A DNA stretch of 63,895 bases, the filler included, from Stramenopiles sp. TOSAG23-2 (taxonomy: Eukaryota), in assembly GCA_900128395.1 (NCBI GenBank). It is 13 parts of 13 records of this genome, joined end to end, with 100 filler letters (N's around TTAATTAATTAA, not from the genome) between each part and the next. Parts side by side here need not be neighbours in the genome. Positions count along the whole stretch, not along the records: positions 45,307 to 51,622 come from LT650479.1; positions 51,723 to 58,036 come from LT650480.1; 11 more parts are not named here. One strand, 5' to 3'. Of the stretch, positions 48,092 to 51,747 are shown piece by piece (the stretch's first letter is position 1; each line of letters starts with the position of its first letter). The translations under genes were made by a program, and so were the position numbers. The notes below the pieces were generated by a model. That model was not told the DNA's origin and made no database searches. It saw nothing but the letters and a program-made list of their open reading frames with translations.

Positions 48092-48139
48092 AAAATTATA
48101 AGATGCCTCTTACGATCGTAAGAGGCATCTTATAATTTT
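48092..48139. repeat. Perfect 48-bp palindrome with no spacer
   Basis: AAAATTATAAGATGCCTCTTACGA|TCGTAAGAGGCATCTTATAATTTT; the 24-bp arms are exact reverse complements. Confidence 0.97.
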
Positions 48140-48299
48140 GATTTTTAAGCTTAGGTAAAAAAAGTATATTTTTATTAATATGGATATACCATTACCCTAT
48201 ATTTACCTGCTAAAATAGATCGTATACGATCTAATATTTGGGAAGTGCGGTTATATAAAGAGAGCATTTTCTAAATATAAATTGGTGTAGGCATGCAAT

Positions 48300-49679
48300 A
48301 TGTTGAACCGAATTCACTTTAACAACAACTATTTGAAGCTAAAGACTGACTCCTACAAGGTTATAGAAGATTATAATGTGAAAGCTCGTAAGTCATATAC
48401 ATATCCGGTGTTTTTACCAATAAAAGTCGAACGTCCCGAACTGGCTTGTAATATGCGTATAGTGTATATGGATAAGAAACACGTGGATTATTTAGATGTG
48501 GTCCATACGATGGCATACCTTGAAACTAATGTCGTGGGAAAGAATGTATTGACGCTAGAAAGACAGTTTGGACGTTTTGGATGGAAAATTTATGAAAATG
48601 ACAAACATGTAATGGTTCATATCGACAAGAATCTTCTTCGATTAATTCAGTATGGTTTTGGATGTAAGATTGCATGTTATGAAAAAACTCGTAAACATAT
48701 ATACAATATACCACAATATGCATTTATTGTACGTGCATGGATGGATACTGATAGGCGTATATTTAAGCATGCATTGCATAGTCTTTCAAATTTACTTATA
48801 CGTAAGGTAACTTATGCAGCGGATGAATTTTTAGATATTATCCGTGAATTACCAAATTTAATGGAAAAATTTGGGAATCGTTGGGAAAATGCCATGGTAA
48901 AGCATTACATTGACGACAACAATCCATTTCTATTGTCCTTATTGTGTTTCTTATGTCCAGGTGCCAATTTAGATAACTTATATATAACGGAAGAAGGTAT
49001 GAACATTTTGTCCTCTCCATGGGCACCATCTGATATAAAAGATTTTTATGCTGAAAAGGAACAGCATAAGTGTAAGAATGGAACATACAAGTTAGTGTCC
49101 AACAACTGTGGCAACATGTGGAAACCATTGTATCAATATATGTTGTCTAATTCATGTAGTGCGGAACAATCGTTTAAGTTGTTCCTGTCTGTAAAAAGAA
49201 CTAAAAATACATTGAAGACAATTGGTAAAAAGCGTGAATTTGTCTCTACGAAGCGAACTGATTTAAAAACGAAGGAAATAACGAAGCAGGTATACAACGG
49301 TGGGTATTTTACACATCAGGGGAAACAGATGATAAAGACGAACATGTTGCATCTAGCAAAATTAATTGTATTGTGTGAAATGCGTAAAAATTATCGAAGT
49401 CATCGATGGCAGGGATTTGGGTATACGCCTGAAGAATACACCAATATGGCTGGTAATGATAATTTATTGCCTTTTGTAGAAGATTTGTTGCGTACAAGGA
49501 CCAAAATAGAACCGTTGGTGCAGCTGCCTAAGGGAATAAAGACATGTGAAGGAAAGTGTGATATTATTGTATCATCTTCTTTTCCGGTATTGAAGTTTTC
49601 AAAGAAATATGGGGAAGAATTGAAAAGTAGAATTGGTGGAAATAAATACAATTATTTTGGAACTTCAGTTGTAGTATAA
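48300..49679 (+). CDS. Hypothetical virus-like protein (459 aa)
   Basis: Intact ATG ORF preceded by TATATAAA at about 48252. No low-complexity tracts. Convergent with the next gene across 34 bp. No family recognised. Confidence 0.7.
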   Translation: MLNRIHFNNNYLKLKTDSYKVIEDYNVKARKSYTYPVFLPIKVERPELACNMRIVYMDKKHVDYLDVVHTMAYLETNVVGKNVLTLERQFGRFGWKIYENDKHVMVHIDKNLLRLIQYGFGCKIACYEKTRKHIYNIPQYAFIVRAWMDTDRRIFKHALHSLSNLLIRKVTYAADEFLDIIRELPNLMEKFGNRWENAMVKHYIDDNNPFLLSLLCFLCPGANLDNLYITEEGMNILSSPWAPSDIKDFYAEKEQHKCKNGTYKLVSNNCGNMWKPLYQYMLSNSCSAEQSFKLFLSVKRTKNTLKTIGKKREFVSTKRTDLKTKEITKQVYNGGYFTHQGKQMIKTNMLHLAKLIVLCEMRKNYRSHRWQGFGYTPEEYTNMAGNDNLLPFVEDLLRTRTKIEPLVQLPKGIKTCEGKCDIIVSSSFPVLKFSKKYGEELKSRIGGNKYNYFGTSVVV

Positions 49680-49713
49680 TTAGTTTAAATATTTTTTAAT
49701 AGGTAATAATCGC

Positions 49714-50148
49714 TTACGCTTCTTCTAATTTATCACCAGATTGAATGGCTGGGTATTTGTATTGTACGAAGAATTCGCACATAACCTTGTAATTTCCTTC
49801 TGGTACATTGTTTGCTTGAAAACGAGCAGACAAATTATCAAACGAGGTGTATGGAATTTGCATGATAACTTGTTCATACAATTGTTTGATAACTGAATTT
49901 ACCACGTTTTTGGATACTTTCACGTATTGGTTTTCACGTTTGACCTCTGCCTCTGCATTGATCCCGAGTAGCTCCCAATTTTTCTGGATAATGGACAAAA
50001 TTATATGGTTAGCCTCTACATACATATAGTCTTTTCCCTTAAATGGAACAATGCCATCCCACAATTTGTCTAGTGTATAACCACCATATTGTTCGATAAA
50101 TCGATTATTAAGGAGGTTTTCTGGGCTGTAAATTTTGGTGTCAGGTCT
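49714..50148 (-). CDS. Virus-like protein lacking its N-terminus
   Basis: The frame is open from 50148 (RPDTKIYSPENLLNNRFIEQYGGYTLDKLWDGIVPF...) without an upstream ATG and overlaps the portal-like stop codon. Confidence 0.55.
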   Translation of the reverse strand, partial: RPDTKIYSPENLLNNRFIEQYGGYTLDKLWDGIVPFKGKDYMYVEANHIILSIIQKNWELLGINAEAEVKRENQYVKVSKNVVNSVIKQLYEQVIMQIPYTSFDNLSARFQANNVPEGNYKVMCEFFVQYKYPAIQSGDKLEEA

Positions 50149-51520
50149 TTAATTCAAATATCTCTGCAGCTCCATCAATCTGTTTACTATGATTACCATC
50201 GTGCAAAACTACCATTATTCGTTTTAATTCTTTATTAAAATCCCCACTATCCATTCTTTCTTCTATGGCTTCCTTTAATTGTTCATTTGTATCATTTTCC
50301 TCATCATATTGAAACGCGTCACCTACATCCCATTCACCTCTTCGAATCAGTCTGTCAATTCTTCTTTTAAGTTTTTCAGCTATCCTGAGTAATGCTGGTG
50401 CACGTACTTCTATTGGCGGTTTTTCAAATAATAATTCGTCAATTTTAGGTGCTTTTGGTTGTAAATCTTCTATTGGAAGTGAGATATTTCGTAAAGCATA
50501 TTCCCCGTAACTTTTCCATGAAATAACACCCTGCTCATACAATTTTCTCAGTTCATCGTTCGACACAAATGGAGTCACGGGAAAATAGACATTCACTTTA
50601 TACTTCCTTTTCAAATCATCTACGCAATCGTTGGCTTTAATTTTAATATCTTTCATAATATTCTCCGCATTAATAGAATTGTAACATTCAGACAATACAA
50701 CCGATAATTTCTTTTTCCACCATAATAAAGTATGCATGAAGGATGCATGTGAGCCTACCGTATCATTAGAACGATTACCTGGTCCATCGCTAAACATCAA
50801 GGATCGAGGTACACCAAATGTAGCACACACTTCTTCTTGTAATAACTTATGGATATTTACCAAATCGTTTCTCCCAGTATTGAAAGCTCCATTTTTAATA
50901 ATATGACCCATCGGCATTTGTGTCACATTTTCCAATGCAGCAGATGCTTTTGCAGCATGATTGGCACCCAAATAACTTTCATATAAATCTTTTTGTTGGG
51001 TTAACATGGCTATAGCAGATTTGTTTCGTTGAAATTTCATATCATCCGATGTTTCTGCTGCATTGGCATCCGCATAAAAGTCAAAATCAATGCCTTCTCG
51101 ATTTTGTTGACCATTCCCGCTGTCTTTTATTTCAGAGAAATATTGAGGGTTGGACCTATCTATTTCCATTCGAATAGAGGTTTGGCGGATCAATTTCATA
51201 TATTGTAGTTTAGGCAATGCCTTTTCTACCAATGAATCAATGACGCCATTGTGTGGAGGAAACCCAAAATGATTAAAAATCACCACATTCCTTAATTCCT
51301 TTTCGGCAGCACCTTTTTCATAAGCCATAAATTCATATTCATTTCTTTTGGTTATTTTAATTTTCAACCAATAGGTACCGTTTTTCATAACAGTTGGAAA
51401 GCATTTATTAAGTGATACTACGGCGAACCCAGAAATCATGACAGAATCAATGACGTCGGCACAAAAAGGAACCCATCTATCCTCTACATCATCTTCTTCC
51501 TCTGGTTTCATCTTGTACAT
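50141..51520 (-). CDS. Putative HK97-type (Duplodnaviria) portal protein, probably N-terminally incomplete
   Basis: EEVCATFGVPRSLM resembles the portal IxxxFGVPxxLL motif. FCADVIDSVMISGFAVV resembles the portal F..L....L..GxAxV block. LYEQGVIS resembles the crown L...Gxx(T/S) motif. All three are in the expected order and spacing. Confidence 0.55.
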   Translation of the reverse strand: MYKMKPEEEDDVEDRWVPFCADVIDSVMISGFAVVSLNKCFPTVMKNGTYWLKIKITKRNEYEFMAYEKGAAEKELRNVVIFNHFGFPPHNGVIDSLVEKALPKLQYMKLIRQTSIRMEIDRSNPQYFSEIKDSGNGQQNREGIDFDFYADANAAETSDDMKFQRNKSAIAMLTQQKDLYESYLGANHAAKASAALENVTQMPMGHIIKNGAFNTGRNDLVNIHKLLQEEVCATFGVPRSLMFSDGPGNRSNDTVGSHASFMHTLLWWKKKLSVVLSECYNSINAENIMKDIKIKANDCVDDLKRKYKVNVYFPVTPFVSNDELRKLYEQGVISWKSYGEYALRNISLPIEDLQPKAPKIDELLFEKPPIEVRAPALLRIAEKLKRRIDRLIRRGEWDVGDAFQYDEENDTNEQLKEAIEERMDSGDFNKELKRIMVVLHDGNHSKQIDGAAEIFELKT

Positions 51521-51747
51521 TTTACTGTCTCCCTGTGAAAATTTAATACCATTGTTAAGCAGTTGGTGAAAATTTTTGCTAAAGACATTTTTGGCAAGAA
51601 AACTTCATTCAAATGACTACGTNNNNNNNNNNNNNNNNNNNNNNNNNNNNNNNNNNNNNNNNNNNNTTAATTAATTAANNNNNNNNNNNNNNNNNNNNNN
51701 NNNNNNNNNNNNNNNNNNNNNNCTCTCTCTTTACCTTCTTCTTCCGC

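Follow-up and report, generated by a model that had tools for sequence, protein, structure and literature searches.

A probable mirusvirus-derived fragment with a truncated portal gene beside host genes in a contig of Stramenopiles sp. TOSAG23-2

Mirusvirus fragments in protist assemblies are already widespread. Excerpts from the survey by Zhao, Meng, Hikida and Ogata 2024 (PMC10827195) record mirusvirus markers in 1,348 of 1,901 eukaryotic assemblies and, across 171 genera, 1,202 sequences of the portal, with many short, decaying copies among them, and part of a second account (PMC12606086) describes in Aurantiochytrium limacinum a chromosomal mirusvirus integrant, AurliV-2, and an episome, AurliV-1, with genes of both expressed. 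Here we analyse a 63,895-base stretch of DNA from Stramenopiles sp. TOSAG23-2 (GenBank assembly GCA_900128395.1), referred to below as the window. On one of its contigs, host genes lie next to virus-derived DNA of approximately 3.6 kb (47926–51567), which includes a portal gene that appears to be cut at both ends and fused to a fragment of a neighbouring viral gene. We consider it very probable, as one compound statement, that this DNA derives from a marine mirusvirus (Mirusviricota, Duplodnaviria), that the frame is a portal relative, that the truncations and the inversion described below are real, that the viral pieces are nearly identical to a circulating virus, and that the left flank is host DNA. 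That the two were joined in the chromosome of the cell is a more tentative proposal.

The present case is one more of a known kind. As in the survey, it consists of portal-type virion-module sequence in a protist assembly, on a scaffold with eukaryotic genes; the surveyed markers, in the portions of PMC10827195 that describe them, mostly score low against reference mirusviruses, whereas the DNA described here is 97–100% identical to a circulating virus and its anatomy can be read at base level. Shared with AurliV-2 and AurliV-1, as far as the excerpted account goes (PMC12606086), is the physical tie between mirusvirus DNA and the genome of a marine heterotrophic protist. Unlike AurliV, the window holds only ~3.6 kb of cut and rearranged genes from which no virion would be possible, and chromosomal integration is only a candidate. 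Portals of tailed phages and archaeal viruses (lambda, 8xow and 8k38; Chi, 8vhx; HFTV1, 8qsy and 8qqn; gene transfer agent, GTA, 6toa) have the same predicted fold over residues 1 to ~373 (Z 10–11.8, 270–307 aligned residues), but identity to them is 7–12%, the family is found in large eukaryotic viruses and carries a basic tail, and the window copy is truncated.

The portal frame and its fold

The contig and the parts of it that bear on the portal gene are as follows, with coordinates counted along the window.

45307–51622: contig with the finding, 6316 bp, with an artificial 100-bp linker on either side
50141–51520, minus strand: third of three packed open reading frames (ORFs), here the portal ORF, 459 residues
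50398–51567, minus strand: portal gene fragment, corresponding to residues 35–424 of the 460-residue protein P0001, 95% identical
50145–50397, minus strand: inverted fragment of a P0111-like gene (409 residues when whole), residues 45–128, 88% identity, 253 bp
51568–51622, minus strand: last 55 bases of the contig, loosely like the next part of the portal, with a stop and a frameshift

Residues 179–287 of the portal ORF match the Pfam profile PF04860 (Phage_portal) with an E-value of 4.3e-4 and 20.0 bits, below the cut-off of 39.1, and the full-length relative P0001 scores a similar 20.7 bits. The same profile is matched at E ≤ 0.01 by 17 of 39 aligned family members (best 5.9e-7), and is present as a precomputed domain in several database relatives of the ORF. 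Among 6512 candidates from a word-indexed search of 5.8 billion proteins, 111 are relatives at E ≤ 0.001, the best of them 95% identical. Invariant in the 39-sequence alignment (A1) are W16, F19, C232, G236, P238, R239 and Y328. The three motifs cited in the original prediction of a portal-like gene, FCADVIDSVMISGFAVV, EEVCATFGVPRSLM and LYEQGVIS, all lie in this third ORF at best-conserved columns of A1, and because they coincide with the most conserved columns of the family they are far beyond chance. Sequence searches of the PDB with the ORF and with A1 gave chance-level rows only.

An AlphaFold2 model of the portal ORF, built on the 39-sequence family alignment, has a mean predicted local distance difference test (pLDDT) score of 71.3, with residues 11–120 at 87 or above. 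Searched against the PDB with Foldseek, the model has nine matches at E ≤ 0.001, every one of them a chain of a portal or connector, from phiXacJX1, HFTV1, lambda or T4. All 50 matches listed by VIA-align are likewise portal, neck or connector proteins (Z 8.1–11.8, 214–307 aligned residues), and all fall within model residues 1 to ~373. In BFVD there are 50 matches at E ≤ 0.001; 30 of them are named, comprising 19 portals, 7 COG4695 phage-related proteins and 4 others. By profile, family and modelled fold, the ORF at 50141–51520 is very probably a portal relative.

The portal homology stops short of the end of the frame. Residues 1 to ~375 of the ORF are portal, and residues 376–459 are 88% identical to residues 45–128 of P0111. 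Missing from the portal copy are residues 1–34 and 425–460 of P0001, and the 84-residue tail that it carries is foreign but in frame. Judged from these alignments, the 459-codon ‘portal’ frame is a chance in-frame fusion of two truncated genes, and the portal copy, being incomplete, would be unable to make a portal ring or virions. The first 34 portal codons fall in the degenerate end of the contig, whose last 55 bases may have decayed or may simply be of poor quality; they do not match L033, a related host locus described below, against which they score 24, where shuffled sequences score 23.4 on average.

At the C terminus of most portal relatives is a lysine/arginine-rich tail with a KRKAE-like motif (A1 columns ~500–600), which the window copy has lost. 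This tail may resemble a nuclear-import signal. Nuclear replication has been proposed for many mirusviruses, and a nuclear-import-like portal tail would fit. For one portal relative, P0091 (469 residues, 44% identity), the source gives the name ‘CRISPR/Cas system CMR-associated protein Cmr5 small subunit’; in view of its family membership, this label is most likely wrong.

The viral source and its circulating counterpart

In IMG/VR, the portal protein used alone as query gave no hit; with the family alignment A1, 12 loci were confirmed among 336 pattern-matched stretches. Ten of the loci are strong (E 4e-128 to 2e-52, 31–52% identity, contigs of 13,953–371,872 bp) and two are weak, at 23% identity. 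Two records were searched whole: G001, which has 179,204 bp, direct terminal repeats and a CheckV completeness of 50, and G002, which has 132,264 bp. Both encode the portal, RNA polymerase subunit B (Rpb2; E 2.9e-127 and 5.4e-72) and a DNA polymerase of family B (PolB). Domains found around the portal in locus L001 and in ten ORFs of G001 (599–1738 residues) comprise protein kinase, TNFR repeat, SNF2 with RING, PI3/4-kinase with FYVE, glycosyltransferase 64, M16 peptidase and trypsin-PDZ. The 599-residue ORF of G001 matches Terminase_6N weakly, with an E-value of 6.7e-4 and 19.8 bits where the cut-off is 22, and ORFs of 1455 and 1738 residues in the same record are unassigned. Profiles for the S21 protease, Terminase_6C (PF17289) and herpes DNA_pack_C (PF02499) matched nothing in G001 or G002, the controls being silent for two of the three and that of PF02499 everywhere.

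Mirusviricota are defined by the combination of a portal with a giant-virus-like transcription and replication module, in a large genome that also encodes eukaryote-type domains. The two records searched whole follow this pattern (portal, Rpb2 and PolB), which is a property of the relatives and not of the window. Against 50,697 phage records, tblastn of the portal gave no match at E ≤ 1e-3, and the only row from PHROGs had an E-value of 0.079. A mirusvirus-type origin is favoured because no phage record matches, because the relatives sit on large contigs, the two searched whole encoding Rpb2 and PolB, and because jelly-roll and P0111-like genes are neighbours of the portal. Three of the 153 window frames of at least 70 codons match viral records, namely the portal frame, its antisense and the middle frame. 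No gene for a major capsid protein (MCP), terminase or triplex protein was seen in the window, where no MCP or triplex query was used.

To the left of the portal and the inverted piece lie the remaining virus-derived features.

47923–48015, minus strand: viral gene stub of 30 codons, its stop supplied by the non-viral side of the joint 47925/47926
48092–48139: perfect 48-bp palindrome, in the viral spacer that separates the stub gene from ORF1
48300–49679, plus strand: ORF1, first packed ORF and sole intact virus-derived gene, 459 residues
49717–50148 from stop to stop (listed as 49714–50064), minus strand: second packed ORF, or middle frame, encoding the C-terminal 137 residues of a conserved mirusvirus protein with a predicted jelly-roll fold (below, the jelly-roll protein)

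Part of the contig is present in 20 runs from 11 studies, according to an index search. Run X1 contains 98% of the sampled words and is the probable source run of the window; many marine metagenomes contain at most 41%. Logan contigs of X1, of X2 and X3, and of the metatranscriptome X10 were aligned to the contig at a likeness of at least 90%. X2 and X3 hold the virus and not the host part, with only traces of cover over 45729–47838, which prove nothing. Positions 47926–48094/48106 correspond to the end of an 11,806-bp X2 contig (2 differing letters in 169) and to a 727-bp X3 contig; left of 47926 both continue in sequence unlike the window, that of X2 for 11.6 kb. Next, 48184–50145 corresponds to positions 1–1962 of a 3,685-bp X2 contig (18 differing letters, 99.1% identity), and 50145–50397 to positions 2686–2938 of that contig on the opposite strand, with no differing letter. 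From these positions and strands it follows that 723 bp, separating the jelly-roll gene and its neighbour in the virus, have been lost at the 50145 joint in the window and that the next 253 bp are inverted. Finally, 50395–51567 corresponds to positions 2038–3210 of an 11,837-bp X2 contig (32 differing letters, 97.3% identity); the contig that carries P0001 is listed with this same length. Where the pieces are joined, they overlap by 1 and 3 nt. Past 51567, the circulating virus continues with an open portal frame, leaving a loose end at this position.

In G001, the portal, P0111-like and jelly-roll genes share a stretch of 5.4 kb, and their order and orientation agree with those implied by the X2 contigs. 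All the viral pieces appear to come from one neighbourhood of the viral genome, and a stretch of ~3 kb between the inverted piece and the portal gene would have been lost. The virus-derived DNA is a mosaic of a stub, a palindrome, one intact gene, the end of a jelly-roll gene, an inverted piece and a doubly truncated portal. Its pieces are 97.3–100% identical to the virus of the marine metagenomes X2 and X3, and its four frames have G+C contents at third codon positions (GC3) of 0.33–0.52 and codon-usage z-scores of −1.95 to −4.6. The identity to the X2 and X3 contigs, together with GC3 and codon usage unlike those of the host, points to a recent origin. No X10 RNA contig is at least 95% identical over the viral genes; the sole portal piece (50580–50764) has 16 differing letters in 185. 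Low-depth odd joints occur in X10 (48177 to 45575) and in X2 (48099 to 47254) and prove nothing.

ORF1 is 96% identical along its full length to P0112, which also has 459 residues, and is collinear with X2 contig record 22 (18 differing letters in 1962). Its family has 23 representatives at E ≤ 0.001 among 1.84 billion proteins. ORF1 has no match in Pfam or in a profile search of PDB sequences, and its only NCBIfam row is lipo_TamL, at 15.6 bits against a cut-off of 400. No relative was found in G001 or G002 by protein or profile, nor in IMG/VR with a narrowed alignment; comparison of the family by hhalign with three portal neighbours in L001 gave probabilities of at most 0.1, and the leads from the ESM Atlas, to AlwI/FokI-like clusters, were all below 0.9. 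Of the virus-derived genes, only ORF1 could still encode a normal protein.

The middle frame aligns, from its first codon, to residue 161 of an L001 protein (alignment A3), so that ~160 codons of a protein of ~290–300 residues are missing. By tblastn it is 51–68% identical to eight viral records, and in 8 of the 12 IMG/VR loci the gene for the jelly-roll protein is separated from the portal by 4–7 kb. When modelled, the L001 homologue (pLDDT 69.3) has its best matches, albeit weak, among single-jelly-roll capsid proteins: satellite panicum mosaic virus (VIA Z-score of 7.0), infectious bursal disease virus VP2 (6.6) and a capsid component of PBCV-1 (6.3), with Foldseek adding circovirus and picornavirus capsids at an E-value of 5.6e-3. 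A sequence search of the PDB with the family gave chance-level rows only. The mirusvirus virion module, as listed in part of PMC12768974, comprises the MCP, terminase, portal, a conserved jelly-roll protein and two triplex proteins. The family of ~290–300 residues is, on its modelled fold, probably this conserved jelly-roll protein. Adjoining the jelly-roll gene, on the opposite strand, are homologues of P0111 in G001 and in other records.

The first base of the palindrome, 48092, is also the start given in the original prediction. In X2, 68-bp units over 48110–48177 occur on both strands at depths of 70.8 and 78.5, compared with 13.6–15.3 for the viral contigs, and because this is ~5 times the viral contig depth the palindrome appears to be multi-copy in the circulating virus. 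It may form a hairpin that acts in regulation or recombination. An exact search of IMG/VR for the palindrome core was negative, and Rfam returned only a chance-level miRNA row for it.

Much of what was first described at this locus holds. The packed ORFs, the 34-bp gap (49680–49713) and the 8-bp overlap of the second frame with the end of the third ORF (50141–50148) lie where they had been placed, the overlap arising from the stop-to-stop frame 49717–50148, and the proposed check of the portal-like gene with AlphaFold and Foldseek returned the portal fold only. The label ‘mirusvirus-like’ suits the contigs of the relatives, of which the two searched whole carry the portal, Rpb2 and PolB, but the element is not intact in the window. 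What has to be withdrawn is the edge of an element with three packed ORFs: only ORF1 is a whole gene, the middle frame is truncated, and the portal lacks 34 N-terminal and 36 C-terminal residues and is fused to the inverted fragment.

The host flank and the make-up of the window

The non-viral features of the contig, and the linkers of the window, are the following.

46019–47065, plus strand: host glutathione S-transferase (GST) gene with a poly-Asn run (Pfam GST_C_3, E 2.8e-17; GST_N, E 7e-6)
47328–47651, minus strand: RRRLL ORF, from the ORF listing
47328–47779, minus strand: 3′ end of a large host gene holding the RRRLL ORF, frameshifted and cut upstream at 47779/47780
47780–47925: unmatched stretch of 146 bp that separates the host gene fragment from the start of the virus-derived DNA, placed by L033 and run cover
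6405–6504, 12907–13006 and onwards to 62432–62531: linkers, mapped as N runs with TTAATTAATTAA

Both host frames have host-like codon usage, with a GC3 of 0.152 for the GST and 0.213 for RRRLL; 23 other window ORFs range from 0.16 to 0.31. With the GST protein as query, JGI metagenome contigs yielded two related records, L033 (GST identity 95–96%) and L034 (90–97%). L033 (4,915 bp) matches 45870–47086 at 95% and 47274–47779 at 83%, the latter being the large-gene part of the window, which is 83% identical to L033 1347–1855. The RRRLL sequence is the tail of a single open minus-strand frame in L033 of 1071 codons (1392–4604) ending ...RRRRLLQDRSKGDCRL, and because that frame ends in it, the RRRLL ‘pseudogene’ appears to be the 3′ end of a large cysteine-rich repeat gene. 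The order of the GST and the large gene is conserved in L033 and L034, two independent cellular-type records without virus DNA. Relative to L033, the window copy of the large gene is frameshifted near 47630. Five pieces from X10 RNA contigs cover 45381–47802 with 0–5 differing letters and no indel in the RRRLL part (47328–47802), which rules out a sequencing error as the cause of the frameshift.

The stretch 47780–47925, lying where host gene and virus meet, is neither matched by L033 nor covered in X2 or X3, the runs that contain the virus. One X10 RNA contig extends 23 nt past 47779, where the criterion for a bridge is 31. A reading of this stretch as the 3′ end of an intron was rejected, as no AG precedes the resumed L033 homology unless five shared bases are coincidental. 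Between the GST and the large gene, which converge at their 3′ ends, 47060–47160 is occupied by degenerate G/T-rich repeats (TTGTGAGGG-like, at least three copies). At its left end (45307–45413) the contig carries a high-copy element, with a word depth of 5712 in X1 and 709 in the RNA run X10. Many differing sequences continue from ~45361–45413 of this end and before 45310–45330; the element is either a repeat in dispersed copies or a short unit with high expression, and Rfam has no match to 45307–45413.

The window as a whole is a pseudomolecule of 13 contigs chained by identical 100-bp artificial linkers (44 N, TTAATTAATTAA and 44 N), nine of the contigs falling from 6404 to 6314 bp and four being of ~1365 bp. 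As a chain of separate contigs, it gives no meaning to neighbourhood across a linker: the ORF at 51748–53166 is part of the following contig, and the contig with the finding breaks off within the portal gene. A separate gap of 398 N lies at 53973–54370. On the remaining contigs, the DNA has ~30% G+C and contains long unbroken frames for ordinary eukaryotic proteins, including a TAF1-like protein with DUF3591 and a bromodomain, PheRS alpha, a Cdc27/Pol-delta subunit, a CRT-like transporter, SAM-domain proteins, TPR proteins and a class I tRNA synthetase. Because ordinary eukaryotic proteins are encoded in uninterrupted frames at this G+C content, the source appears to be an AT-rich, apparently intron-poor eukaryote; the ESM Atlas, consulted for PheRS, likewise indicates a eukaryote and no particular lineage. 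The upstream part of the L033 large gene matches another small contig of the window (62431–62075, 85%; contig 61068–62431), with 803 bp of the gene falling between the parts on the two window contigs.

For this flank too, the original prediction survives in part. Its host-style GST with poly-Asn is confirmed by the Pfam matches, the host codon usage and the gene order in L033 and L034. The claim that all lies on one contig is right for the GST and the portal ORF, which share 45307–51622, although the window itself is 13 linked contigs. A frameshifted sequence does exist at 47328–47651, but the RRRLL pseudogene is better described as above. Codon usage was to be compared across the junction, and GC3 is 0.33–0.52 in the virus-derived frames against 0.16–0.31 in host ORFs. 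As for integration, an X1 contig bridges the host–virus joint, but X1 is the probable source, and no independent run or metagenome contig has the joint.

Origin of the host–virus joint

The reading that we prefer is that a broken, rearranged stretch of the virion-gene region of a viral genome would have been inserted very recently into a chromosome of a marine eukaryote. The site of insertion would lie beside the GST gene and inside or next to the large cysteine-rich gene. The pieces would have been joined by end-joining with overlaps of 1–3 nt, with two internal deletions and one small inversion, and the inserted copy would have been dead on arrival and not a working element. Taken whole, with a real chromosomal insertion included, this statement falls in our judgement marginally short of an even chance.

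That the host joint would lie in the chromosome of the cell, and not only in an amplified library, is the inferred part of this reading. A 2742-bp contig of X1 (record 5, depth 2105) covers 45380–48121 without a difference and bridges 47925/47926 with 2546 letters on one side and 196 on the other. A second X1 contig, of 2310 bp (depth 3129), bridges the inversion joint at 50145 and ends 22 nt past 50397, where 60-bp records overlap by 30 nt. The depths of these two contigs are similar. A 3% variant was kept as its own X1 record, and no branch of intact virus is present at the joints among the rows listed. No long inverted duplications occur within the other 12 window contigs, and L033 shows the GST and the large gene uninterrupted, free of viral DNA. 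Over 50390–50449, X1 has two 60-bp contigs that are one letter apart, at depths of 2130 and 62; the 3% variant, in what may be a single-cell library, could be an early amplification error or could reflect more than one copy of the viral sequence.

Several observations weigh against a chromosomal insertion. Because X1 is probably the source library of the window, its contigs are not independent evidence for the joints that they bridge. The joint 47925/47926 is bridged by none of X2, X3 and X10, and a 28-mer across it has 0 matches in JGI metagenome contigs. The contig set of X1 is small (7.8 million letters), with uneven word depths of 2105–5712, and its size and depth suggest whole-genome amplification. 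The 50145 joint, an inversion with an intervening 723-bp deletion, is of the commonest type among chimeras of multiple displacement amplification. In the excerpted data of Lasken and Stockwell (PMC1855051), more than 85% of 475 chimeras are inversions with an intervening deletion, and more than 70% have complementarity of 2–21 nt. The near-identity to the circulating virus and the unadapted codon usage fit equally well with DNA of an infecting or ingested virus. A single host flank is seen, as the contig ends in viral DNA. The two long X1 contigs have no more than 12 nt in common, at the palindrome, and do not show continuity across it, and no X1 contig lies on 50450–51622 among the rows listed. 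The window contig 61068–62431 carries the upstream part of the large host gene, and that gene may be whole elsewhere in the genome.

These points bear most directly on an artefact of amplification or assembly, which is a serious possibility although somewhat further from an even chance. A sorted cell, its food vacuole or its surface would have held mirusvirus DNA; template switching would have joined strands inverted, with deletions, and to host DNA, and an early product would have come to dominate. The shape of the 50145 joint and the overlaps of 1–3 nt agree with the main class of chimera in the published extracts (Lasken and Stockwell 2007, PMC1855051), which shares with the present case an inversion and intervening deletion in one molecule and short overlaps. 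All the viral pieces lie within a few kilobases of the viral genome, as intramolecular switching predicts, the depth of the source run is very high and uneven, the joints are absent from the independent samples (X2, X3, X10 and the JGI 28-mer search), and the viral DNA is 97–100% identical to the circulating virus. Yet three or four joints in 3.7 kb would each have to dominate the consensus, and the X1 contigs cross 47925/47926 and 50145 without a break or a loose end among the rows listed. As the 3% variant was kept (62 against 2130), an intact viral branch of similar size should also appear among those rows. The join of host to virus would be intermolecular, a class disfavoured in the same extracts (PMC1855051), where chimeras are single, mostly intramolecular and found in individual reads; here several serial joints dominate, and one links two genomes. 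Nor are there hairpin-type artefacts in the other 12 window contigs.

Three further explanations are set against the same evidence. If the entire 6.3-kb contig were viral, it would represent a mirusvirus strain with a captured host GST and part of a host gene. Host-derived genes are frequent in large eukaryotic viruses, the contig is short and it has no host gene to the right of the viral part, but the near-identical virus of X2 and X3 has other sequence left of 47926 (11.6 kb in X2), the GST and RRRLL codon usage is host-like and that of the viral frames is not, L033 and L034 have the GST and the large gene in order without viral genes, no GST-like frame matched in G001, G002 or eight other viral loci, and packaging would be impossible for a genome whose portal lacks both ends; we regard this as very unlikely. 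An old domesticated host gene of viral origin, kept for a host function, could be argued from the 459 open codons of 50141–51520 and from the intact ORF1. That open frame is instead a chance fusion of two truncated genes, the DNA is 97–100% identical to circulating virus with codon usage that is not host-like, the related host locus L033 lacks the insert, and the X10 RNA contigs offer nothing at 95% or above over the viral genes, the 50580–50764 piece being the one with 16 differing letters in 185; domestication is exceedingly improbable. Contamination by a bacteriophage, or a prophage fragment from a cell-associated bacterium, might be suspected because the sole curated family match is named ‘Phage_portal’ and the closest solved structures are phage portals. 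It can be set aside almost completely: the 50,697 phage records gave no tblastn match, PHROGs gave E 0.079 only, the relatives sit on contigs of 100–370 kb, with Rpb2 and PolB in G001 and G002 and kinase, TNFR, RING and FYVE domains in G001, and family members carry lysine/arginine-rich tails.

For the screening of protist assemblies, the locus carries a warning. Gene-level screens of such assemblies can overstate the intactness of viral genes and the support for integration, because a seemingly intact 459-codon portal is here a fusion of two truncated genes and because the window is a chain of unrelated contigs. The special value of the case lies in its near-identity to a circulating virus, which would tie that population to one marine eukaryote by way of insertion, infection or ingestion. 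To our knowledge, the hosts of most mirusviruses are unknown. It is possible, if somewhat more likely to fail than to hold, that a wild marine protist carries a recent, scrambled mirusvirus insertion that interrupts a host gene, provides a host assignment and leaves ORF1 intact for the host. If the insertion is real, endogenisation would have been caught at its very start: mirusvirus DNA would enter host chromosomes as scrambled, dead-on-arrival fragments that interrupt genes, and the virus would be directly assigned to its host.

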